The notes beneath the pieces are model-generated. The model saw nothing but the letters and a program-made list of their open reading frames with translations. It was not told where the DNA came from and made no database searches. A program made the position numbers and the translations under genes. Shown here in pieces: positions 2,697-28,105 of a DNA stretch of 28,629 nucleotides (positions are counted from its first letter, which is position 1; each line of letters begins with the position of its first letter). Source of the DNA: a virus; IMG/VR virus record IMGVR_UViG_3300028045_000070. One strand, written 5' to 3'.

Positions 2697-2938
2697 GTGT
2701 CCATCCTACCTAGAGTAGTCTCAACAACAGAAGGGTTTTTGTGATTGTTAGCTTTGAAACGCAGGGCTGTGATATCACCAACACAGTCGGGATCAGGGGG
2801 AGATTGTTCTCGACCTTCATACTCCCGTGCATCCATCCAGATCCAGTAGCCCTGCTCTCCACTTCCACCAAGCCAATCAACAAAATGTTTACGCGCCTTC
2901 TTGTTGGCAAATTCGATTGTTAGATCACTATCGCTCAT
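2693..2938 (-). CDS. small hypothetical protein
   Basis: 81-aa ORF whose ATG shares a base with the stop of the DUF2997 gene (TAATGA). Confidence 0.45.
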   Translation of the reverse strand: MSDSDLTIEFANKKARKHFVDWLGGSGEQGYWIWMDAREYEGREQSPPDPDCVGDITALRFKANNHKNPSVVETTLGRMDT

Positions 2939-3126
2939 TATCCGCCAACACCTTGCGTGTCACTGACATCTTGGTCGTCGTAGTATTCAGTCTTTTTCTT
3001 GCTCTTGCTAGAGCCCAAAGCCTTTTCCAGAGCCTTAGTTAGCTTCTTACAACTCGACCCCGTAACACCTTCGACATCGATGGTCACCTGGCCGCTCTTG
3101 GAAATGATAATCTTGATTTCTTTCAT
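2938..3126 (-). CDS. DUF2997-family small protein
   Basis: MKEIKIIISKSGQVTIDVEGVTGSSC is typical of the DUF2997 partner of DUF1257. The gene sits 1 nt downstream of the DUF1257 stop. Confidence 0.6.
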   Translation of the reverse strand: MKEIKIIISKSGQVTIDVEGVTGSSCKKLTKALEKALGSSKSKKKTEYYDDQDVSDTQGVGG

Positions 3127-3127
3127 C

Positions 3128-3586
3128 TTAGTACTGCCTCAATCGGATAGTTGTTTCCCCGGTTGCGGGGTCAAAATCTTCGCTAACAAGCCAGTTCTGC
3201 GCCTTAGCCAGCTTTGATACTTGGCCTCGGGCCACCTCTTTGGCGTATTCGTGGATTAGCGACTCGCAATCTTTACCGGCTTTGGCCTGCATTCCATGAC
3301 CACCGGCCCAGAAATCCCACATCAAGATACTGGATTTCTTGCCCTCTCGGCTCTTGCAAATACCAATTTCATATGCTTGTTTATTGCCTGGGATGGAAAT
3401 GGCGTGATCACACTTGCCCAAATCACTAGCAGCAAAGCCAGTAGGCAGCGGGTAGTCACCGACACTTCGGCCATACCATCTATATGTTTTTTGGCCTTCA
3501 TTAAAGACCAGCCCAAGATTTTCGCAGGCTCGTGCTAGAGCAGCAAAGTCCTTAATTTCAATATCAACGATTGCAACGTGGCTCAC
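3128..3586 (-). CDS. DUF1257 (Ycf35-like) protein
   Basis: 152-aa ORF with a GTG start preceded by GGAGAG. Its length and motifs fit DUF1257, and it sits in the conserved neighbourhood with DUF2997 and the AAA+ ATPase. Confidence 0.6.
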   Translation of the reverse strand: MSHVAIVDIEIKDFAALARACENLGLVFNEGQKTYRWYGRSVGDYPLPTGFAASDLGKCDHAISIPGNKQAYEIGICKSREGKKSSILMWDFWAGGHGMQAKAGKDCESLIHEYAKEVARGQVSKLAKAQNWLVSEDFDPATGETTIRLRQY

Positions 3587-3764: not shown

Positions 3765-5381
3765 CTACAGATCCAATTGTCTACCAGCACTAGTATCACC
3801 GGGGTTGTCAATAACGCTGGCGTTGACAGCATTCTTGGAAGCCCACGCTGCCATATGATCTAGCTGCTTTGACTTTGATTTGGCTAGGGGGTTTGTCTGG
3901 TTAATAGCAACCTCAATGCCTTTAGCACTGATTTCCTCTTCCTTGTAAAAGGCACTGTAAAGTGCACTTACAATGGATTCCTCTAGCTCCGCTCCGCTGA
4001 AATCCTTTGATGCTTCGACACAACTGTCAACGCCCTCGGCAAAAACCTCACTAGGATCACGACCGTACTTCTTGACGTGAATATTAAGAATCTCTTCTCG
4101 CTCTTTAGTAGAAGGCAGGCCAACGAAGAAGATTTCATCGAAGCGGCCCTTACGCAAAAGCTCAGGAGGCAACCCTTCAATCCGGTTGACAGTAGCAACG
4201 ATAAATACCGGAGCAGTTTTCTCCTGCATCCAGGTGATGAAGTTGCCAAAGACACGCTGGCTAGTCCCCCCATCAGTTGAGCCACCGCCCATTCCTGAAA
4301 ATGCCTTATCCATTTCATCAATCCAGAGAACGCAGTTACCTACCGCCTCAACAGTCTGAATAGCTGTGCGCAGATTAGCCTCACTTTGACCGACCAGACC
4401 GCCGAAGACACGTCCGACATCAAAGCGGATCAGGGGAACACCAAGAATGTTGCTAGTGGCTTTAGCTGAGAGGCTCTTGCCGCACCCAGGAAGGCCCACT
4501 AGCAAGATACCGCGAGGCATGGGCAGTTTGAAGTCGCGGGCCTTCTTACTAAAAGCCTTACTGCGAATCATTAGCCACTTTTTGAGGTTCTGTAGTCCCC
4601 CAACATCCTTGGCCGTTTCCGCTGCCTCAAAATACTCCAGAATGCCTGTCTTTTTAACAGCCAGTGCCTTTTCTCCTAGAACCATTTTAGAGATGGGCTT
4701 TACTTCTTCCTCTCCTGCCTTTTTGGCTTCAGCCCGCTCTACCAAGGCTTTGGAGAATGCCGCTTCTGCTTCGTCTGTGGTCAAACCCATAGCAGCCTGG
4801 ACGATACGTTCAATCTCATCGTCCTCGATAACACCGATTTTCTTCTTGTTACCGCTGTACAGTGCGTTAAAGATCTGGAAGATTTCCTCCTTGCCAGGAA
4901 GATCAAACTCAATAAGAGAGATATCTTTTTCCAGTTCCTTGGGAATTTCGCTAACTGGGCTAATGATAATCAAGGTTTTCTGCGTTTGCCGAAAATCCTT
5001 AGCAATATCCCGAATAAGACGCCTAATTACTGGATTCTTCAGAAAACTGTGAAAATCACGAAATACGAAGATTTTCTTTCCAGGCCGATCTTTGATCGCT
5101 TGCAGGGCCTCCCCAGGATCAGTCTCTTCATCCAGGGCCTCAGCACCATTTGCACCGATTTCGATAAAGCCTTCCGTGCAAGACCATACCTCAAGACCAC
5201 GCTTGCACTTTTTAGCGGCTTCAAAGATAGTCATCTCGCCACGATTTTCTTCTGCTGTTTGCAGGTAGATAATCGGGTAGCTGGCCTTGATGTAGGGAAC
5301 AAGTATATTCATGTGATCCACGTAGGTTAGTGGGAGGCGTCTATATGCCCATATTAGAGCACAGAATACGCTTTTTGTCAA
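3765..5381 (-). CDS. AAA+ ATPase, Ycf46-like family
   Basis: Walker A is LLVGLPGCGKSLSAKA and Walker B is VLWIDEMDKAF. The sensor/arginine-finger region LRKGRFDEIFFVGLP and the LIRFDVGRVFGG motif are characteristic of Ycf46. Confidence 0.85.
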   Translation of the reverse strand: MTKSVFCALIWAYRRLPLTYVDHMNILVPYIKASYPIIYLQTAEENRGEMTIFEAAKKCKRGLEVWSCTEGFIEIGANGAEALDEETDPGEALQAIKDRPGKKIFVFRDFHSFLKNPVIRRLIRDIAKDFRQTQKTLIIISPVSEIPKELEKDISLIEFDLPGKEEIFQIFNALYSGNKKKIGVIEDDEIERIVQAAMGLTTDEAEAAFSKALVERAEAKKAGEEEVKPISKMVLGEKALAVKKTGILEYFEAAETAKDVGGLQNLKKWLMIRSKAFSKKARDFKLPMPRGILLVGLPGCGKSLSAKATSNILGVPLIRFDVGRVFGGLVGQSEANLRTAIQTVEAVGNCVLWIDEMDKAFSGMGGGSTDGGTSQRVFGNFITWMQEKTAPVFIVATVNRIEGLPPELLRKGRFDEIFFVGLPSTKEREEILNIHVKKYGRDPSEVFAEGVDSCVEASKDFSGAELEESIVSALYSAFYKEEEISAKGIEVAINQTNPLAKSKSKQLDHMAAWASKNAVNASVIDNPGDTSAGRQLDL

Positions 5382-5392
5382 GAGAAGCGAGA

Positions 5393-6187
5393 TTAGAAAG
5401 TCAAACTACCGGTTACAGCCAGCGTCGTCAAAGCAGCAACGCCCAACGCAGTAAGGCCCGCTCCCAACAAAGAAAACATAACCACAAGTCCACGAAAACG
5501 ACTATCTCGCTTATACGCAGCCAGGAAGCGGGCTGCTTTGCCTGGAACAATAGGAGTCAAGATAGAGACATTAACGTCGGATTCTCGTTTTCCGTTTTCC
5601 GTCTCTACAGTCCAGGTGCCATCGCTTGCTTCCCCAATCAGGATACAAGGATAGTGCTTGAAGGTGTGATATACGATCATCCCAGGAGTCATAGCTTGCT
5701 GGTTGATTTCAGCCTGCGCCTTACGCTGTGCTACAACAAGTGCTGCATCTCGGTAATGCTCAGCAGTTACATCTCCCAAAACCTCACTAGCAGACAAGGA
5801 CTCTGGTTCAATGATCTTTTCTGCTCCTCGTAGGCGTTCGATGCTACACTCCCTAGCCCCATCCTCGGCAGCTAGCCGCTTTTTGTTGTTTTTGTTGTTA
5901 CGAGCATTGCGGGACTGGGCACCCGTAGCTCCGCGAAGTAGCTTGTAGCTGTAGTTTTCGCTTCCTCCATCAGGATGGGCTAGTTTTACCTCGCCACGAG
6001 CCCCGACAGACACGCACTCCAGCGCTGTGTTTGCAATTTTTTCATGCCCCCATACAAGTCCACTAGGGTAAGGCTGTTTCTGTTCTTCCAGAGTAGGACG
6101 ACGGGCAACATAGTAAGCCCCAACTACAATAGTGTCTGGGTCAAGGAGCGAATACTGCTCGACGAGGCTCTGCTGGTTAATAATCAT
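5393..6187 (-). CDS. tail-anchored membrane protein, paralog family member 1 (shared C-terminal domain)
   Basis: The C-terminal segment EHYRDAALVVAQRKAQAEINQQAMTPGMIVYHTFKHYPCILIGE...W.VE is followed by a TM helix. It aligns with the C-termini of ORFs 14138-15211 and 26789-28105. Confidence 0.55.
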   Translation of the reverse strand: MIINQQSLVEQYSLLDPDTIVVGAYYVARRPTLEEQKQPYPSGLVWGHEKIANTALECVSVGARGEVKLAHPDGGSENYSYKLLRGATGAQSRNARNNKNNKKRLAAEDGARECSIERLRGAEKIIEPESLSASEVLGDVTAEHYRDAALVVAQRKAQAEINQQAMTPGMIVYHTFKHYPCILIGEASDGTWTVETENGKRESDVNVSILTPIVPGKAARFLAAYKRDSRFRGLVVMFSLLGAGLTALGVAALTTLAVTGSLTF

Positions 6188-6284: not shown

Positions 6285-6312
6285 TAGACAAAATAGTATG
6301 TTTTGCTAAAAT
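6285..6312 (+). promoter_or_regulatory. plus-strand promoter (TAGACA, N16, TAAAAT) giving a leaderless transcript of the 6319 gene
   Basis: TAGACAAAATAGTATGTTTTGCTAAAAT is followed by GTCTTT and then the ATG at 6319. Confidence 0.45.
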
Positions 6313-6318
6313 GTCTTT

Positions 6319-6648
6319 ATGTATGGATTTGTAACCGATAGCCCACTATTCGATAACCCAGGTGGCTTTAATAGAGCACTAACTAATGAAGAGAGTCTTC
6401 GTTTACGAGCCTCTGCACAACAAGCAATAGAAGCAGGCCGCCCTATGACAATGGCTGAGATGTATGGAAAGCCTCAGCAGCTATTTAGGCAACTAAGTGG
6501 GTTTGATGGCCTAGAATCAGCAGCAGGCAGCGCAGTTGTGGGAATTATTCTAGGGGCTTTTCTAGCGTCTAAGTGGGGAATTAAACTTTTTCCGGTTGGT
6601 CTTATCATCGGCTATACAGTAACTAGTCAATTAGTGGAGCACATGTAA
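6319..6648 (+). CDS. small membrane protein
   Basis: 109-aa ORF with a hydrophobic C-terminus, lying in an AT-rich plus-strand mini-operon. Confidence 0.45.
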   Translation: MYGFVTDSPLFDNPGGFNRALTNEESLRLRASAQQAIEAGRPMTMAEMYGKPQQLFRQLSGFDGLESAAGSAVVGIILGAFLASKWGIKLFPVGLIIGYTVTSQLVEHM

Positions 6649-7204: not shown

Positions 7205-7610
7205 AGGGCGAGACGTAGGACTCACTGCCTTCTGGACCTAAAACCTTCGCCACCCAATTGGTAGTTTCTATTTCCCCCGCTCGTTTGATATTACTCTGGC
7301 CTAATGTTCGGTAATAGGCTGCCTGATATATCCATTTCGCTTTGAGAAGGGTAGCTGCCTCTTCAATAGAATAGGCAACACTAGGATGCGCAAAAGGTAG
7401 CCCTTTTTGGGAAGGCTTTACGTGAAGAAAACAGGCCCCACTACTCGGAGGCCATTGCATACGTCCTTCTCTAATCCAGATTGCCTTTCCGGGAGAAAAA
7501 GACTGATTTCTAGCCTCAGAGTCAGTAAACCTGTGCTTTACAACAATGGGCACGATACTATCAAGACCAACAAAATAAGCTGTGATAGGTTCTTCAAGAG
7601 GAATTTTCAT
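7185..7610 (-). CDS. hypothetical protein
   Basis: 141-aa ORF with no motif I can name. Confidence 0.4.
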   Translation of the reverse strand: MKIPLEEPITAYFVGLDSIVPIVVKHRFTDSEARNQSFSPGKAIWIREGRMQWPPSSGACFLHVKPSQKGLPFAHPSVAYSIEEAATLLKAKWIYQAAYYRTLGQSNIKRAGEIETTNWVAKVLGPEGSESYVSPFTGKEN

Positions 7611-8031
7611 TTAGCACAATACTTTGGTTTAGCACAATCTCAACAGTTGAGATATCATCCACACAAACATCTACTACTACCCACTGTAAGTGCCCCTCAT
7701 GGGCTAGCTTTTTTCTATACAAGGTAATGAAGCTATCTTCTCCCGAGGAAAACCAAGCAGCCCGGTGGAAATCAACCCGAACGTCATTTTTAAGCGTCAT
7801 GACGTAGCTATCATGCACTGTTTTAGATCTTAATAGGAGCGGCCCCAAGTTACTAAGGTCTTCTTGGGCACGTTCGTAATCCGTGGGTTCCGGGTGGTCC
7901 TCTTCCTCTTCCTGCGGCTCATGCTTTTTGCGACCCCTGCCTTTTGTTTTAGGCTTTGGAGATGGTGCCACTGGCTCGGGTTTAGGAGGAAGAAGCGAAT
8001 TATAAAGATCGGGCGGGCTAGATTCTAACAT
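7594..8031 (-). CDS. AT-hook-like, Pro-rich N-terminus fused to an unknown C-terminal domain
   Basis: PKPEPVAPSPKPKTKGRGRKKHEPQEEEED is followed by a compact domain. Confidence 0.45.
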   Translation of the reverse strand: MLESSPPDLYNSLLPPKPEPVAPSPKPKTKGRGRKKHEPQEEEEDHPEPTDYERAQEDLSNLGPLLLRSKTVHDSYVMTLKNDVRVDFHRAAWFSSGEDSFITLYRKKLAHEGHLQWVVVDVCVDDISTVEIVLNQSIVLNENSS

Positions 8032-8043
8032 TAGGAAATCATA

Positions 8044-8691
8044 TCAGGTTTCTATATTTTTACCAGCCCCGAGTTTGATAGACCCACCATTTTTCTTTAA
8101 AGTGCCATCGCGCAACATCTCATTAAGAACAATGTTAGCTCTTACTTTTCTGACCCTTCGTAATTCTATTAGACGAGTAATTTCTTTATCTTCATTCATA
8201 AAACGGTTTAATAGTTCGTCTTTTGAAATCTTGGAGTCCCCTAAAGATTTCAAAAGAGATTCTTGTATTTTATCTTGTTCTTCTGTAATAGCTATCGGCA
8301 GCGGGTTCCATTTGCGAGTAGGATGCTCCCAATGATCCATCTCACAAGCAAAATGACGATGCTTTGTATTAGCTTTCCTAAAGCAAGGAGGCTCTAGAAT
8401 TAGCATCCATTCAGTACCTGCAGATAGCTTAGGGAAAAACTCCCTCCCCCGCTCGTAATCGCGGCTAATTACGTTATAGTTGTAAGGCTTCCCAAAAATA
8501 GATTTACCACTAAACTGCTCTTTAATGGTAGCCCAAAAACGTGATGACCAACACCAATCGCTCCCTACAATTCGATCCCCATCATAGGTATCAAAGAAGG
8601 TGACAAGACCAAACCAAGACTCTCTCCATAAAACAAAAGTTGTATAGAGGGTGGATTGCTCTTCGAAGATTATAATGTTTGTTTGGCTCAT
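8044..8691 (-). CDS. hypothetical protein (AT-rich segment)
   Basis: The ATG at 8689-8691 shares a base with the stop of the upstream MetRS-like ORF (TAATG), so the start was set at the internal Met of the track ORF. Confidence 0.45.
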   Translation of the reverse strand: MSQTNIIIFEEQSTLYTTFVLWRESWFGLVTFFDTYDGDRIVGSDWCWSSRFWATIKEQFSGKSIFGKPYNYNVISRDYERGREFFPKLSAGTEWMLILEPPCFRKANTKHRHFACEMDHWEHPTRKWNPLPIAITEEQDKIQESLLKSLGDSKISKDELLNRFMNEDKEITRLIELRRVRKVRANIVLNEMLRDGTLKKNGGSIKLGAGKNIET

Positions 8692-8990
8692 TAATTCTTC
8701 TCCAGGCGAGGGAACAGAGGCTCGCACTTAACGATTTTCTCAGCCAGAAGATTATCAAGAATCTTTTCTGCCGTTTCGGGAATTACGGGAGAAGCTAGAT
8801 TTACCAAGAAAATAACATCATTGACCAGAGTTGTTAAGACTTGCGTCAGACGCTCAGTCTCTCCCTTCTTGTAGAGTTCCCAAGGTTTTTCATCTTCGAT
8901 GGTTTTATTAGCTTGCCGAAGACGAGTCCAGATATCCTCCAAACCTTCTTTAAAGCGCAGATCGCGATATTCTTCTGGAACTCTCGACAT
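8691..8990 (-). CDS. stand-alone fragment resembling the C-terminal anticodon-binding domain of methionyl-tRNA synthetase
   Basis: KPWELYKKGETERLTQVLTTLVNDVIFLVNLASPVIPETAEKILDNL...EPLFPRLE matches the MetRS helical anticodon-binding region and its terminal PLFPR motif. The ORF is only 99 aa but has its own promoter. Confidence 0.55.
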   Translation of the reverse strand: MSRVPEEYRDLRFKEGLEDIWTRLRQANKTIEDEKPWELYKKGETERLTQVLTTLVNDVIFLVNLASPVIPETAEKILDNLLAEKIVKCEPLFPRLEKN

Positions 8991-9011
8991 CTCTCACCGC
9001 CTTCTAAGGAG

Positions 9012-9039
9012 AGCTTACCTTAAGGAGGATCCCTGTCAA
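9012..9039 (-). promoter_or_regulatory. sigma70-type promoter (TTGACAGG, N16, TAAGCT)
   Basis: The minus strand reads TTGACAGGGATCCTCCTTAAGGTAAGCT, about 20 nt upstream of the 8990 ATG. Confidence 0.5.
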
Positions 9040-9054
9040 GGGACTGTAATCTTA

Positions 9055-9441
9055 CTATTGATTTGCTGAATGCTTAGGAGCATAGAAAGTACAAAGTTCA
9101 GTCCCAGCAGATACATCCTTCAGGGCGATGAAATCTAATAATCTGTTCTGGTCCCTGCCATTGATACTATAAAAAACATTTGGTGTCTTAGAGTGGTTGA
9201 ATATTGATCCATACCCGAAAACAACTAAGGCACCCTTTGGGTTACAGTGAGATTTAAAAACATAATTCTGCAGAATATTTGATTGGTCATATATCATATC
9301 CTTGTGAACTTCAACAAAAGGACAAATCTCTAATAGTTCCCCTTTTCGGATAGAACTTTTAGCGAAAACACCATAACCCGCTCCGGGAATTTTACTTTTA
9401 CCGATTATGAGTTTTACAGGCCCCTGGTACTTAGAATACAT
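9055..9441 (-). CDS. minimal SET-domain lysine methyltransferase (vSET-like, 128 aa)
   Basis: GAGYGVFAKSSIRKGELLEICPF is the SET-N GxG motif. FNHSKTPNV is the NHSxxPN motif. AGTELCTFY supplies the catalytic Tyr region. The overall layout resembles Chlorella virus vSET. Confidence 0.7.
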   Translation of the reverse strand: MYSKYQGPVKLIIGKSKIPGAGYGVFAKSSIRKGELLEICPFVEVHKDMIYDQSNILQNYVFKSHCNPKGALVVFGYGSIFNHSKTPNVFYSINGRDQNRLLDFIALKDVSAGTELCTFYAPKHSANQ

Positions 9442-9472
9442 ATGTTTATATTACCAAATAGGCGCATCATTG

Positions 9473-10165
9473 CTAATCTTGAAAAGATCTAAAACCAAAC
9501 CTAGCTCTTAGGAAATCCACAATATCTTGAACTTTTTCTGTTTCAACATATGGCCCGATTCCCTCGTCATAAGGACTGCAAACATCTTGGTGAGGAAAGC
9601 CGTATAGCAACCCACCAAAGTCATATTGTGTTGTTTTTAGAGTAACTATGGCTTCATCCATGCCATCCCACTCAACCTCTGTGTCGTATTCCGACCCTTT
9701 AACATAATTGTCAATTTCTGTTTGTTTTTCTATGTCTGATTCCTCTATCCAAGGAGGATGATCATCCTCGAAAAAATACCTTTTTACTACAACAGGGGCC
9801 ACGCTAAACATAAATTCCCATTGAGTGTAGCCATAAATGTCGTTAAGAAACTTTCTCGGCTTGCAGTATAAGCCAGGACCGGCTTGTATTGATAGAAAGT
9901 AGCTGCGTTGCGAGTATGGGTGTTCTATATCTTCTTGACCAAAGACCAGAGCATCAAAAGTTGGGCCGAAGTCCTTGTTCTTCTTATTCAACAAAGTTCT
10001 AAAATCTATTGGCTCCTGGTTTTGAAGCACATGCCTGGTCCCGGCATATAAGATCCTAGGTTCAACCTCAAGCCCCCTTCTTCTGCAGTAAATAAAGGCA
10101 CGGCTGCAAGCCTCTTCATCGCCTTGAAAACATTGTCTTTCCAGTTCGCGGTATTTTTCATCCAT
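9473..10165 (-). CDS. hypothetical protein
   Basis: 230-aa ORF with no recognisable motif. Confidence 0.45.
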   Translation of the reverse strand: MDEKYRELERQCFQGDEEACSRAFIYCRRRGLEVEPRILYAGTRHVLQNQEPIDFRTLLNKKNKDFGPTFDALVFGQEDIEHPYSQRSYFLSIQAGPGLYCKPRKFLNDIYGYTQWEFMFSVAPVVVKRYFFEDDHPPWIEESDIEKQTEIDNYVKGSEYDTEVEWDGMDEAIVTLKTTQYDFGGLLYGFPHQDVCSPYDEGIGPYVETEKVQDIVDFLRARFGFRSFQD

Positions 10166-10187
10166 GAACGTATTTTACCAAACCCTC

Positions 10188-10652
10188 TCAAAAATAAAGA
10201 GGAGGAATCTGGTCTACCGCCCAACAACTATCATCCAACAGATAATCAATAAAGGTTTCAGCGTCGTCAGTGCTAAAATTACTTTTCTGCCAAAACTCAT
10301 ATTTTGATCGTTCTTTGATGGGCGTTACTAGCTGACTCGGATCTAATCCAAATTGTGTGGCCGTGATATCAACGATGTAATCGCCATATTCCACATAACA
10401 GTGCCCACTAAGGTCTTCATCATCTAACCAAACAACAAGCTGGGGCTTGAACCGCTCATCCGCCATATTGAGCACAACCGCATTATTGAGCATGTGGAAA
10501 ACTTTCATCGCCCCATATGCACATAATCCGGTCATACTACTATAACCACCAACCTCTTCTTTATACAGTTCTAGCGACACCCGCGCTTTTGAGGCCACCT
10601 TTTTGATAATACTACTTGTTAGCATGAGAATCTTCTTTAACTTGGTCCCCAA
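10188..10652 (-). CDS. possible transglutaminase-like cysteine peptidase (Cys-His-Asp)
   Basis: GLCAYGAMKVF...GHCYVEYGDYIVDITATQ places the three residues in the order expected for a transglutaminase-like core. The start codon is uncertain. Confidence 0.35.
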   Translation of the reverse strand: MGTKLKKILMLTSSIIKKVASKARVSLELYKEEVGGYSSMTGLCAYGAMKVFHMLNNAVVLNMADERFKPQLVVWLDDEDLSGHCYVEYGDYIVDITATQFGLDPSQLVTPIKERSKYEFWQKSNFSTDDAETFIDYLLDDSCWAVDQIPPLYF

Positions 10653-14137: not shown

Positions 14138-15211
14138 CTAAGCACCAAAGTAGTGCAGCACAAAGTACCAACCAGCCATATCTACAGCAGCAAACAAAGC
14201 CACTACTGCCAGACCAATCTTAACCTTGCTGCTAGGGTTCGACACCTTAGCCCAGGCCCTCTTCACAAGACCAGGACTCTTGGTAGTCAGCATAGCAACA
14301 TTCAAGTGGGTTTTTTCTCCAGAAGGAGACTCTACCTGCCAAACATTTGCTGAAACCTTAGCAAGCAGAATGTAAGATGCACTCTTGAAGACGTGGTAAA
14401 CCTTCATTCCAGCGATAAACGACTGTTGGGCAATCTCTACACGGGCCTTACCCGGAGCAACCTCTTCCGCAGCATCTTGGTAGTGGGTTGAGACGACAGC
14501 CTCAAGGACGTTTTTAGCTGTAAGCAATTTCGGTGTATCTGGCTCGTTCATAACTGGTTCCTTAATCTCTGTCTTACCCATTGTAGTGGCGGGGTCTACG
14601 CCGAAGAATGATGTGCCATACTTGTCGAAGTAGGTTCCCTCTGCAAGATTTCCAGGTGGCTTCCCGCTGGCAAATGCGGCAGAATAAGATGCCTTCCCGG
14701 TGGCAAATGCGGCAGCATAGGATGCTTGCCACTCTCGACACTGGCAGCCAAAGCCCATCAACTCCTTCATAGTGCAAGAGCACAAATCAATTTCTTGACA
14801 AGGATTTGTTTGTCCCGAAGGGGCTTGAAAGTAGCCTGGCTCATAAGGCTCATATTGCTCGGTTGAGCACAATTCCGGGTGTTTTGGTTTTGCTGTTTTC
14901 ATATCAAAAGCTCCTTCGCTCGTAAACCTATCAGGATAGCCAGAAAAAATCGCATTCAACTCGCGGAACTTCTTTGCCACGATCTTTGCTTTGCACTTAT
15001 ATCCGACTTTTTCGGCGCACCCCGGATGATACCACTTATGATAATCGCCCCAATCGGAGGAGTTTGCCGGAACACCGACGCGGGTTGACTTATCCGCAAT
15101 TAGCTCCTGGCATTCTCGGCATTTGCTGGTGCCCGATTTAGCAGTCGCTACGATGAAAGCCTTCTTTTTCTTTTTCCGTTTCGTCTTTGGCATACTCGCG
15201 CTCGCGCTCAT
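14138..15211 (-). CDS. PARP-type zinc-finger (zf-PARP) protein with the paralog-family C-terminal domain and TM anchor (family member 2)
   Basis: AKSGTSKCRECQELI-x27-HKWYHPGC has the same spacing as the PARP1 nick-sensor finger (C-x2-C-x28-H-x2-C) and follows a KKKKKK stretch. The C-terminus HYQDAAEEVAPGKARVEIAQQSFIAGMKVYHVFK... ends in a TM helix. The start was set at the internal ATG 15211, which the promoter geometry makes leaderless. Confidence 0.7.
   Translation of the reverse strand: MSASASMPKTKRKKKKKAFIVATAKSGTSKCRECQELIADKSTRVGVPANSSDWGDYHKWYHPGCAEKVGYKCKAKIVAKKFRELNAIFSGYPDRFTSEGAFDMKTAKPKHPELCSTEQYEPYEPGYFQAPSGQTNPCQEIDLCSCTMKELMGFGCQCREWQASYAAAFATGKASYSAAFASGKPPGNLAEGTYFDKYGTSFFGVDPATTMGKTEIKEPVMNEPDTPKLLTAKNVLEAVVSTHYQDAAEEVAPGKARVEIAQQSFIAGMKVYHVFKSASYILLAKVSANVWQVESPSGEKTHLNVAMLTTKSPGLVKRAWAKVSNPSSKVKIGLAVVALFAAVDMAGWYFVLHYFGA
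14661..14726. repeat. 2x33 bp intragenic tandem duplication (encodes ASYAAAFATGK / ASYSAAFASGK)
   Basis: Read directly from the sequence. Confidence 0.6.
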
Positions 15212-15218
15212 TTTTCCT

Positions 15219-15247
15219 ATTAGATCACGCAGGGCGGGATCTGTCAA
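15219..15247 (-). promoter_or_regulatory. sigma70-type promoter (TTGACAG, N17, TCTAAT) with the ATG 7 nt after the -10
   Basis: The minus strand reads TTGACAGATCCCGCCCTGCGTGATCTAATAGGAAAAATG. Confidence 0.5.
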
Positions 15248-15255
15248 TGGAAGCC

Positions 15256-15603
15256 TCAAAGCCAAACCAGAGCCAAGCTGCCCCTTTTATTTTCGGTATC
15301 GACCTCTACAACAGGATGCAGTTTCTTGTCTTTGCCTAAAGGGGCAACACCTTGCAATTTAAGCTCTTTTTCAAGAGTTTTAACTGCGTGGCCGGGATTA
15401 AATGCTGCAACAATTTCTATTGCTTCATCCAAAGAACGACATTCATAGTAACGCTTATCACTTTTCCAGTTGAGCAGGCATTGGATGGTCATCCAATTAA
15501 AGCCGATGGACACACCTGTAAGAGATATAAGATTCTCGCCCTCATTACATGGAATTGCACAAAGAATATCAGAAAGCTGCTGTAGTTTCTCGAAATCAAT
15601 CAC
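15256..15603 (-). CDS. hypothetical protein (start uncertain)
   Basis: The track ORF 15256-15753 overlaps the upstream gene by 158 nt. A GTG at 15601-15603, preceded by AGGACGG and overlapping the upstream TGA (GTGATTGA), is a plausible coupled start. Confidence 0.35.
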   Translation of the reverse strand: MIDFEKLQQLSDILCAIPCNEGENLISLTGVSIGFNWMTIQCLLNWKSDKRYYECRSLDEAIEIVAAFNPGHAVKTLEKELKLQGVAPLGKDKKLHPVVEVDTENKRGSLALVWL

Positions 15604-16021
15604 CACAACCGTCCTGGGTCTTTTTATGAGGAGGCATACAAGTGCGGCACAAGCATTCCGCACACGCCAGGATCTTTGTATACTTTGGAGGGCTGTTTTC
15701 GTCCGTAATGCGGACCAGATTTTGGATTTCTGCTCGATCTGAGCCACAATCACAACCAGCCTCTACATCCCCAACCACAAAACTCTCTACATCCCCAACC
15801 CCAAAACTCACAGTATGCTCCTCCCAGATCCTCTTAATGGCTTTTCCACTATCTGTTTCATGGAAAAGACAAGGCTGACCAAGATGCTGATCTTTATCGT
15901 GGTCACACTCGATCTTAAACTCGTTCACAAAGGCTTGCCCCAACCTGAGATGTGGAAACCCTCCTGTATTGAATTTCTGCAAGAAAGGCCGGATCTGAGC
16001 ATAACTAACTTTGTTCTTCAT
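15596..16021 (-). CDS. hypothetical Cys-containing protein
   Basis: 141-aa ORF whose ATG lies 5 nt after a TAGGAT -10, so the transcript is leaderless. Confidence 0.45.
   Translation of the reverse strand: MKNKVSYAQIRPFLQKFNTGGFPHLRLGQAFVNEFKIECDHDKDQHLGQPCLFHETDSGKAIKRIWEEHTVSFGVGDVESFVVGDVEAGCDCGSDRAEIQNLVRITDENSPPKYTKILACAECLCRTCMPPHKKTQDGCGD
15761..15806. repeat. 2x22 bp intragenic tandem repeat (ctctacatccccaacc[a/c]caaaa)
   Basis: Read directly from the sequence. It encodes GVGDVESFVVGDVEAG. Confidence 0.55.
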
Positions 16022-16026
16022 ACCTA

Positions 16027-16055
16027 ATCCTAGATCATTAGCGGATTTCTGTCAA
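16027..16055 (-). promoter_or_regulatory. sigma70-type promoter (TTGACA, N17, TAGGAT), leaderless
   Basis: The minus strand reads TTGACAGAAATCCGCTAATGATCTAGGATTAGGTATG. Confidence 0.5.
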
Positions 16056-16064
16056 GACACACAA

Positions 16065-16088
16065 GGGGGCAGAATTTCTTCTGCCCCC
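16065..16088 (-). terminator. intrinsic terminator hairpin downstream of the MVP gene
   Basis: GGGGGCAGAA, a TTTC loop and TTCTGCCCCC form a perfect 10-bp GC-rich stem placed 10 nt after the MVP stop. Confidence 0.6.
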
Positions 16089-16097
16089 CGTGGTCTA

Positions 16098-26788: not shown

Positions 26789-28105
26789 TTATAGGGGCAG
26801 AGCCAGACCATAAGCGGAGATATATACACAAGCAGCTATAAAAGCCCCAATCAATCCAATAGCGGTAGACATACTAGCTGCTCGGTTACCTTTTCGGGTC
26901 GCATCGCGTGCAAAACCTTTTGCTTTATGTGCAACATTGTTAGTAAGGCCCCACAACATTATACAGAAAGCAGTAAATGCTGCTCCAACCTTGTTGGTAG
27001 TCCCTCCAAGCCACGCACCAGTCTTATTAAGGAAACTAGGGCTGGTAGTTCGTAGCACCGCAGGATGCAGCCGCCCTATGCGCTGACCATCTGGTCTTTC
27101 TGCAATCCAATTACCAGAGCGTGACTCTTCCACCAGCATATAAGGTTGGTGGCTGAAAACATGCCAGACGAGCATACCCGGAGCTAGTGCCGCCAGGTTT
27201 GTCTCTACACGAGCCTTGGTAAGAGCAACCTCTTGCGCCGCCCCTGCGTATTCATCACTAACAGCAATCTGTAGAACGTCTGAGCAGGATAGTTTCTCTT
27301 GTTTCTCTTGCTCCTGCCTCAACTTAGCCTCTAACAGCCTATTCGATGCCTCCAGATGCCCTTGCTGCCACAACTTGTCTTCCAGCAGCAGGTTTTCTGC
27401 ATGTAGTTTCTTATTCTCATCTCTAAGAACAGTCTGCGAATCCCGCATAGTAATCAAGGTCTTGTGGAGATCCTTAAGATCCAGTTCCAGCTTATCCTGT
27501 TTAGGAGAACCAACAGCCTCCGCACTCGCTCCGAAAGTAATACAGTGATCAATAGGGGCTGAGGTAATACGCGCAGATTGGGCCGATAACGACCTACCTG
27601 AGTGGCCCTTCGCCAGGATCCGAGACCCTGTGATATACCCATAAGTAGGGTTACGATTCCAGTTGTCATATGTTCCAGATTTAGGCTTAGTGCTTGCTAG
27701 TCTGATCCACTCTGTAGGAACCCAAGCACAAGTAGCGTTATCATCAGGTTTAGGGCTGCCCTTTAGGTGCCAACCATTGATTTTATCTAGCAGTGGCGCA
27801 ACACCCATTTTCTTATGGGCCTGTAGGTGAAAAATCTTGGTGCCCAAGCTGTTAACCCACTTTATCCAGCGATCCGAAAATTCGGAATAAGGTTCTGGTA
27901 GTGTACTAGGAACAGTAATATAGACTTTATCCCCAGAACTGAATACTGGACCATCAAGCTGCCTGCAAAAACGGCACTTGCCCTCACCATTACAAGGAAT
28001 AACACCAGCAGTGTGATTTTTCATATGAGCCTTCCAGCGTTGACGTGATCGACGCGAGGCATCCTTGTAAGGGCCGACTTTGTGGGGTGCGTATTGGTTC
28101 ATCAC
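26789..28105 (-). CDS. coiled-coil protein with the paralog-family C-terminal domain and TM anchor (family member 3)
   Basis: The C-terminus DEYAGAAQEVALTKARVETNLAALAPGMLVWHVFSHQPYMLVEESRSGNW is followed by a TM helix. The N-terminus carries a Cys/His cluster (HMKNHTAGVIPCNGEGKCRFC) and a coiled coil. GAGGTAG lies upstream of the ATG. Confidence 0.55.
   Translation of the reverse strand: MMNQYAPHKVGPYKDASRRSRQRWKAHMKNHTAGVIPCNGEGKCRFCRQLDGPVFSSGDKVYITVPSTLPEPYSEFSDRWIKWVNSLGTKIFHLQAHKKMGVAPLLDKINGWHLKGSPKPDDNATCAWVPTEWIRLASTKPKSGTYDNWNRNPTYGYITGSRILAKGHSGRSLSAQSARITSAPIDHCITFGASAEAVGSPKQDKLELDLKDLHKTLITMRDSQTVLRDENKKLHAENLLLEDKLWQQGHLEASNRLLEAKLRQEQEKQEKLSCSDVLQIAVSDEYAGAAQEVALTKARVETNLAALAPGMLVWHVFSHQPYMLVEESRSGNWIAERPDGQRIGRLHPAVLRTTSPSFLNKTGAWLGGTTNKVGAAFTAFCIMLWGLTNNVAHKAKGFARDATRKGNRAASMSTAIGLIGAFIAACVYISAYGLALPL

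Follow-up and report, generated by a model that had tools for sequence, protein, structure and literature searches.

What role does lysine methylation play when a virus infects a host without histones, and have SET-domain methyltransferases moved between the viruses of eukaryotes and those of prokaryotes? Both questions are raised by a small gene in IMG/VR virus record IMGVR_UViG_3300028045_000070, a stretch of 28,629 nucleotides (hereafter the window) in which positions 9055–9441 of the minus strand encode a 128-residue protein with one SET domain. Histone lysine methylation is written mainly by SET-domain enzymes, and beyond eukaryotes their roles are known in only a few instances: MC1-alpha in Methanosarcina, Hc1 in Chlamydia, and secreted effectors. 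SET relatives are carried by at least 150 IMG/VR contigs, and phage SETs recur among them, none with an assigned substrate; a literature search likewise found no paper assigning a substrate to any phage SET. The product of the window gene is a genuine minimal viral-type (vSET-type) SET-domain protein. In our judgement it is rather probably a stand-alone vSET-like lysine methyltransferase of a huge phage of about 600 kb, expressed from a leaderless mRNA and likely directed at a basic, DNA-associated protein.

The open reading frame (ORF) starts with ATG and, stop codon included, fills 9055–9441. Its product matches the Pfam SET family (PF00856) with 51.4 bits against a gathering score of 22.4 (E 1.6e-13), far above the chance level, and the match covers profile positions 1–104 of 105 and places the domain at residues 22–120. 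When compared with all PDB chains, the sequence matches vSET of Paramecium bursaria chlorella virus 1 best (1n3j, E 2e-13), and next the minimal SETs of Plasmodium (4rz0) and Schizosaccharomyces pombe (Set7, 5h6z). An AlphaFold2 model built with 70 homologues as input (mean predicted local distance difference test score, pLDDT, 88.9; predicted template modelling score, pTM, 0.80) has the SET beta-fold, and its top Foldseek match in the PDB is again vSET (3kma; E 8e-11, root-mean-square deviation 2.3 Å, 33% identity), with a template modelling score of 0.86 when normalised to vSET as the target. A total of 371 PDB chains match the model at E≤1e-3, and SET enzymes make up 50 of the 50 matches listed. 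The first-pass annotation, made from the letters alone, had called the product a minimal vSET-like methyltransferase on the strength of three motifs, and both the assignment and the motifs (GAGYGVFAK, residues 20–28; FNHSKTPNV, 81–89; TELCTFY, 114–120) hold up.

The architecture is as bare as that of vSET. There are only three cysteines (C40, C66 and C117), scattered and without a CxCx4C pattern, and an eight-residue tail, A-P-K-H124-S-A-N-Q (9058–9081, minus strand), stands in place of a post-SET region; together these indicate that neither a pre-SET nor a post-SET zinc module is present. The tail is modelled with low confidence (pLDDT 61), and its PxHxxN(H/Q) pattern is kept in the nearest subclade. 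The protein has no PHROGs, PADLOC or NCBIfam match, and the lack of a PADLOC match argues against its belonging to any known defence system.

The active site is intact. We aligned 70 sequences, with relatives at 27–59% identity to the window protein, and compared each of its functional positions with vSET. The S-adenosylmethionine (SAM)-binding GxG motif, G20-A-G-Y23-G24 (9370–9384, minus strand, as are the other motifs), aligns with vSET G14-G-Y16-G17, and in the HMMER alignment Y23 falls on Y16. The active-site and SAM-pocket tyrosine Y60 (9262–9264) corresponds to vSET Y50. The NHSxxPN motif, N82-H83-S84-K-T-P-N88 (9178–9198), whose codons agree with the DNA, is the same as vSET N69-H70-S71-K-D-P-N75 at six of seven positions, T86 replacing D73. 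In the C-terminal catalytic motif E115-L-C-T-F-Y120 (9082–9099), E115 and Y120 align with vSET E100 and Y105. Across the family alignment G24, G76, E115 and Y120 are invariant, and G22, N82, H83 and N88 nearly so. Y120 is also found in all of 80 cellular relatives (and 70/70 in the family alignment), Y60 is invariant in the clade alignment and present in 78/80 cellular relatives, and H124 occurs in 14/14 giant-virus-type relatives. The SAM-binding positions and the catalytic tyrosine, the loss of which would have spoken against the first-pass reading, are thus kept in both the vSET and the family alignments. In vSET, Y105 aligns SAM and the substrate lysine for methyl transfer, and the enzyme functions without a post-SET domain (PMC3914023). 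Judged from these residues, the window protein is probably an active SAM-dependent lysine methyltransferase.

A subgroup of five relatives (P0158, P0159, P0161, P0002 and P0172, on contigs L009, L094 and L095) has N-T-S instead of N-H-S. The subgroup, which includes a copy on an 859-kb contig, keeps all other catalytic positions and may have an altered or weakened SAM site.

A HMMER scan of 1.84 billion cluster representatives recovered 5,311 relatives, 1,784 at E≤1e-10, and many are single-domain proteins of 115–170 residues. The closest (46–60% identity) are all metagenomic, and together with the window protein they form one clade with a neighbour-joining (NJ) bootstrap of 95. This clade has two homes. 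The first consists of giant, ORFan-rich contigs that use Shine-Dalgarno (SD) sites (L008, 313 kb; L009, 859 kb; and L094–L096) and encode sigma-70-like factors, gyrase, an aminoacyl-tRNA synthetase and Lar-like proteins. The second consists of contigs L178 and L179 (protein P0186), which have DUF5755, a fucosyltransferase and a ribonucleotide reductase small subunit, and no SD signal. Relatives of DUF5755 lie overwhelmingly on contigs of IMG/VR giant-virus metagenome-assembled genomes, which indicates that L178 and L179 are of the nucleocytoplasmic large DNA virus (NCLDV) kind. The giant-virus-type SETs are extended at the N-terminus by a strongly basic stretch, which is absent from the window protein. 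A further protein, P0028 on L180 (with DUF5764 and ankyrin repeats, and no SD signal), falls just outside the 95% clade, its joining node having only 35% support. Scanning IMG/VR gave no relatives of either the exact gene or the giant-virus-type subgroup.

Cellular homologues are numerous and more distant. At least 592 minimal-SET matches are present in GTDB representative genomes (185,579 species), in the Candidate Phyla Radiation, Woesearchaeota, Bacillus/Paenibacillus, Methanosarcina, Planctomycetota, Saprospiraceae and others; the best are 31–43% identical to the window protein, and none of the 185,579 species genomes has a relative above 43%. Against the window protein vSET scores 61 bits (36.8% identity), and some cellular SETs score higher, up to 81 bits. 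The NJ tree places the clade relative to vSET with a bootstrap below 35, and its position relative to cellular SETs is likewise not settled by the tree.

Signature residues are concordant with the tree. Position 23 is Tyr in the window protein, the clade and vSET, and Arg in 74/80 cellular prokaryotic SETs; the residue following the catalytic tyrosine is Gly in the clade and in vSET, Ala121 in the window protein and Asn in 61/80 cellular sequences; and where the cellular proteins have W64 (64/80) and G65 (60/80) the window protein has S64-H65. It thus lacks the signature of the cellular Go1-SET/BaSET type (GRG, W-G after the YxF motif, and Asn after the catalytic tyrosine). F42, N55, S64-H65 and R100 are common to the phage-type and giant-virus-type members and missing from cellular SETs, and most SETs on IMG/VR viral contigs have Gly after the catalytic tyrosine and a residue other than Arg at position 23. 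Because the clade and vSET share signature residues that set them apart from cellular SETs, the term 'vSET-like' is apt when taken to mean a minimal SET of viral type, although sequence comparison does not allow direct orthology with the chlorovirus enzyme to be shown. Minimal SETs also occur in bona fide tailed phages: one relative adjoins a tail-sheath gene on a 120-kb IMG/VR contig, and another adjoins a helicase and a DNA polymerase.

Two features of the clade's giant contigs deserve mention in their own right. On the 313-kb contig a histone-deacetylase-family protein is encoded 4 kb from the SET gene (L008 14541–15452, minus strand). The same contig carries bacterial-type GyrA and GyrB, the latter with the GyrB insert domain (15679–20396, minus strand), and the pair recurs in L096 (15342–18068, minus strand).

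How the gene is expressed is suggested by what precedes it. An extended −10-like element, TGGTAATAT (9448–9456, minus strand), ends 6 nt before the SET ATG and is a putative promoter; the exact 12-mer TTTGGTAATATA occupies 9447–9458 (minus strand), 5 nt before this ATG. The degenerate motif TTTGGTAAWATA has a second exact copy, TTTGGTAAAATA, 5 nt before the ATG of a 230-residue gene. An extended −10 (TGnTAnAAT) is also found at a 145-residue gene (ATG at 8031; element at about 8037–8045, minus strand) and where the two plus-strand units begin, at 6319 and 18130 (elements at 6302–6313 and about 18113–18121). In all five orthologous loci (L008, L009, L094, L095 and L096) the sequence TGnTA(T/A)AAT ends 5–6 nt before the SET ATG, and many other genes that begin transcription units on these contigs carry an extended −10. 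In up to 11 cases per 20 kb the element ends 4–8 nt, mostly 5–6, before the first in-frame ATG. The Al-Shayeb huge phages L012 and L013 did not show this pattern.

This spacing would set the start of transcription at the ATG itself and so give a leaderless mRNA, and these sequences suggest that the SET gene is leaderless and independently transcribed. In the related loci the next gene lies on the opposite strand, and SET is therefore monocistronic. The window copy may share a transcript with a downstream fragment resembling methionyl-tRNA synthetase (MetRS) and a 215-residue ORFan. The first-pass annotation had spoken of a bacterial promoter context; a generic sigma-70 scan gives no excess of promoters, but an extended −10 element does lie directly before the ATG.

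What kind of element carries the gene was considered over 48 kb, comprising the window and contigs L010 and L011. At least 21 contigs, drawn from several samples, carry an identical protein; the two longest measure 599,739 bp (JGI 3300072015) and 318,241 bp (ENA ERZ27250555 k141_3911615), and in five copies with identical protein that were compared the DNA is identical too. Genes in the 48 kb lie almost all on one strand with frequent overlaps of 1–17 nt, and SD-like tetramers precede 31–35% of starts against 8–17% of control positions; such SD-like sites and operon-style overlaps point to a prokaryotic host, which would lack histone H3. Only about 17% of the genes have a Pfam match and about 80% of the neighbouring genes are ORFans. 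The annotated proteins include an AAA+ ATPase with DUF2997, a WGR protein, a prokaryotic RING finger, the fragment of a MetRS anticodon domain, a zf-PARP protein, a PARP catalytic domain, a 585-residue protein like the major vault protein (MVP) and a SNF2 helicase, and directly outside the window are RtcB and a 2H phosphoesterase (L011 19365–20258). The closest similarity of the AAA ATPase is to phage enzymes (36% identity across 91% of the protein), and in the phage collection the SET and the vault-like protein have homologues only in the huge uncultured phages LR756500, LR756501, LR756503 and LR756511. A huge phage, or a comparable giant mobile element of prokaryotes, is thus the likeliest carrier. 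When 25 kb of the window were compared by megablast with 50,697 phage records, no match emerged; the tblastn search described below, likewise without a match, indicates that the element is not close to any deposited phage.

Two other kinds of carrier were rejected. The one-strand arrangement prompted comparison with Borg-like elements, with which the few short two-copy tandem repeats and the bacterial-type translation signals do not agree. The NCLDV-like sister group prompted consideration of a eukaryotic giant virus, which is contradicted by the overlapping, operon-style genes, the SD enrichment and the extended −10 elements at unit starts; the NCLDV-like contigs have no SD signal.

No other gene accompanies SET across the loci compared. 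An all-against-all comparison of the window region with the orthologous loci (L008, L009 and L094–L096), the huge phages L012 and L013, and the IMG/VR locus L006 found SET to be the only gene in common, and a conserved SET neighbourhood is therefore rejected. This bears on the proposal that the gene belongs to a chromatin-flavoured block with a PHD/RING-like protein, an AT-hook-like protein and a SNF2 ATPase. The SNF2 neighbour is confirmed. The protein at 992–1525 matches a prokaryotic RING finger just below the Pfam cut-off (27.2 against 29.1 bits), and that at 7594–8031 does contain KGRGRKK but has neither a GRP core nor a Pfam match. The setting is AT-rich in a mild sense: SET has the lowest G+C of the window genes (37.5% against a gene mean of 46.1%, sd 3.8). 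Since SET alone is common to the five related loci, however, the block is not a conserved unit, and the idea of a functional one is not supported. The stretch 8044–10625 is also low in G+C (39.5–43%), and the low values of the gene and the stretch may reflect comparatively recent acquisition.

The immediate neighbours are a free-standing 99-residue fragment like the MetRS anticodon-binding domain (8691–8990, minus strand; Pfam Anticodon_3, 24.9 bits), which lies 64 nt downstream of SET with an SD-like GGTGAG before its ATG and is not beside SET in related loci, and a 230-residue ORFan upstream (9473–10165, minus strand) with its own extended −10 copy at 10171–10182. The ORFan has no Pfam, PHROGs, PADLOC or NCBIfam match and is not kept beside SET elsewhere. 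PADLOC gave no match for the SET, 230-residue and 215-residue proteins, and only generic SNF2/AAA similarities elsewhere in the window. A tRNA-Thr with anticodon TGT (22870–22942, minus strand) is the sole Rfam/ARAGORN match in the window.

Other genes of the element are curious in themselves. The 585-residue protein (16098–17855, minus strand) has MVP repeats and an MVP shoulder (Pfam Vault, Vault_3, Vault_4 and MVP_shoulder); its homologues in the phage database are confined to the huge uncultured phages LR756500/501/503, and a 65%-identical copy lies on a 7-kb IMG/VR contig (L177). The same co-directional block encodes the zf-PARP protein, the PARP catalytic domain and WGR (14138–15265, 21773–22522 and 1529–2305), and with RtcB and the 2H phosphoesterase these constitute a vault/PARP/RNA-repair-like gene set in a prokaryote-style element. 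Three proteins (5393–6187, 14138–15265 and 26789–28105, all minus strand) share a paralogous module of some 90–115 residues (33–43% identity, E 1e-15 to 1e-18) with unrelated N-terminal parts and a hydrophobic C-terminal anchor; one of them bears the zf-PARP finger, and the module has no family match. Finally, the AAA+ ATPase (3765–5381) is followed by small ORFs, one of them DUF2997 (3128–3586 and 2938–3126, all minus strand), a cassette that recurs in phages; the ATPase is 36% identical to ATPases of Rhizobium, Agrobacterium and Rhodobacter phages, and it has weak similarity to the anti-phage IetA/IteA ATPase.

Taking these observations together, we favour the following account. The SET gene would be transcribed alone, presumably by the host RNA polymerase, from the extended −10 promoter abutting its ATG. 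The protein would bind SAM through the GxG, Y60 and NHS elements, with Y120 positioning the substrate lysine for methyl transfer. Its target would most likely be a basic protein that associates with DNA and belongs either to the host nucleoid or to the phage, and methylation of this protein would remodel DNA packaging or transcription during infection, in parallel with vSET on host H3K27, Go1-SET on MC1-alpha, cpnSET on Hc1 and BaSET on H1. This class of substrate is the likeliest because the characterised minimal SETs act on such proteins (PMC3914023, PMC3980110).

Several points weigh against this account. Only eight residues follow Y120, a shorter tail than in most relatives, and residue 121 is Ala where the clade has Gly; vSET, moreover, requires dimerisation for its function (PMC3914023). 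The generic −35/−10 scan of the window is at chance, with 11 promoters against 9.8 expected (a generic terminator scan of the window is likewise at chance level). No candidate substrate is kept beside SET in the related loci. Pfam and PHROGs reveal no capsid, terminase, portal or tail gene within the 48 kb, and tblastn of 11 concatenated neighbour proteins (mostly ORFans; 2,918 residues) against the 50,697 phage records gave no match; because of this lack of virion genes and of phage matches among the ORFans, the phage assignment is circumstantial. Even so, each of the alternatives that follow is less well supported than the methyltransferase of a huge phage set out above.

The alternative that survives best keeps the enzyme and changes the target: the protein would methylate translation factors, ribosomal proteins or structural proteins of the element, and so tune translation or virion stability. 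SET enzymes with non-chromatin targets are well established, including Rubisco LSMT and the ribosomal protein methyltransferases Rkm1-4, and these serve as precedents. The MetRS-like fragment 64 nt downstream may be co-transcribed with SET, and the element encodes a tRNA and RtcB. However, the MetRS-like neighbour stands beside SET in no related locus, and the characterised proteins closest in size and fold (vSET, Go1-SET and cpnSET) all act on DNA-associated proteins, so that we regard a non-chromatin target as unlikely.

A second alternative takes the eukaryotic flavour of the element at face value. If the element infects or resides in a bacterium living inside a protist, then SET, the vault-like protein, PARP, WGR, RING and SNF2 could act together on the eukaryotic host as a 'eukaryotic association' set, and the enzyme would target eukaryotic proteins such as histones, in the manner of Chlamydia NUE, Legionella RomA, Bacillus anthracis BaSET and vSET. 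The concentration of eukaryote-typical domains in the window is indeed unusual, the sister group within the 95% clade lies on NCLDV-type contigs and bears a very basic N-terminal extension resembling a nuclear localisation signal (NLS), and methylation of host histones by secreted bacterial SET effectors is on record (PMC3980110). The window protein, however, has neither a basic or NLS-like extension nor a secretion signal, a mechanism of export is not evident, nothing links the element to an intracellular bacterium, and free-living prokaryotes also have MVP-, PARP- and RING-like domains. A eukaryotic target is accordingly a distinctly unlikely prospect.

We think it more improbable still that the window is part of a cellular chromosome or megaplasmid, with an ordinary prokaryotic SET regulating the cell's own nucleoid proteins. 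Bacteria and archaea do commonly carry minimal SETs (the GTDB matches described above), the 48 kb lack a virion gene, and 600–860 kb is the size of a small cellular genome. Against this, the best cellular matches are only 31–43% identical and carry different signature residues (R23, W64-G65 and N121), no GTDB relative exceeds 43%, and a proportion of about 80% ORFans among neighbouring genes is far above that of cellular genomes. That the protein is an inactive, degenerate SET fold serving as a binding module for SAM or a lysine peptide, or as a decoy, is very unlikely: the very short tail, Ala121 and the His-to-Thr change in the NHS motif of the five sister-subgroup sequences, which implies relaxed catalytic constraint somewhere in the clade, are outweighed by the intact canonical SAM-binding and catalytic residues of the window protein and by the fact that vSET works without a post-SET domain (PMC3914023).

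The preferred reading, a methyltransferase of a huge phage acting on a basic DNA-associated protein, can be carried further. A single SET lineage, marked by S64-H65, R100 and the GYG loop, might span giant viruses of eukaryotes and huge phage-like elements of prokaryotes, its prokaryotic form being an early, leaderless takeover factor that methylates lysines of bacterial nucleoid-associated proteins and thereby silences or repackages host DNA. We put this forward tentatively, as a conjecture much likelier to fail than to hold. If true, it would be a bacterial counterpart of H3K27 silencing by vSET and the first phage 'epigenetic' weapon based on protein methylation.

Neither the SET domain nor its minimal form is new, and viruses, phages among them, have been recorded as carriers before. 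What is new is the well-supported link between SETs of the huge-phage type and those of giant viruses, the conserved architecture of the putative leaderless promoter, and an element of about 600 kb rich in eukaryote-like domains. Unless a nucleoid target is demonstrated, the gain is incremental and not conceptual. Being compact, apparently intact, probably expressed independently and clearly tied in sequence to giant-virus SETs, the window protein is nonetheless a convenient entry point to both of the questions raised at the outset.

Comparison with known SET systems places the protein more precisely. The closest characterised enzyme, vSET (A612L of Paramecium bursaria chlorella virus 1; 1n3j, 2g46 and 3kma), is a histone H3K27 methyltransferase. 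Like it, the window protein is a virus-encoded, bare SET domain of about 120 residues without pre- or post-SET zinc clusters; the two are 36.8% identical over 106 residues, differ by one substitution in the FNHSK(T/D)PN block, and have in common the Tyr at GxG+1 and a small residue after the catalytic tyrosine. Unlike vSET, the window protein has an insertion of 2–6 residues with S64-H65 and a shorter C-terminal tail, and its carrier resembles a virus of prokaryotes, the host of which presumably has no histone H3. The metagenomic giant-virus SETs (for instance P0186, P0004 and P0163) belong to the same 95% clade at 42–48% identity and share F42, N55, S64-H65, R100 and H124 with the window protein, but they differ in a Lys/Arg-rich N-terminal extension of 20–50 residues, and their genomes differ in lacking an SD signal and in having NCLDV marker families.

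The SETs of tailed phages resemble the window protein in being minimal and, given its probable carrier, phage-borne. They are represented by A0A6J5L8Y2 of an uncultured member of the Caudovirales, a 128-residue 'SET domain containing protein' that is the top structural match in BFVD (E 2e-11, 34% identity), and by ORF62 of Stenotrophomonas phage Ps15, an annotated SET-domain ORF (PMC9025141). They differ from it in their 29–41% identity, in mostly lacking the S64-H65 insertion and in belonging to genomes of ordinary size (contigs of 4–242 kb). The cellular minimal SETs (Go1-SET of Methanosarcina mazei, BaSET of Bacillus anthracis and cpnSET/NUE of Chlamydia) are likewise single-domain proteins, of 120–170 residues, but have GRG instead of GYG, W-G at positions 64–65 and Y-N instead of Y-G/A, and lie outside the viral clade. 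They work in, or derive from, cells that have no canonical nucleosomes. The archaeal chromatin protein MC1-alpha is a substrate of Go1-SET, Hc1 of cpnSET and histone H1 of BaSET (PMC3980110). By analogy, Go1-SET and cpnSET offer the best functional guides to what a SET enzyme may do in a prokaryotic setting.

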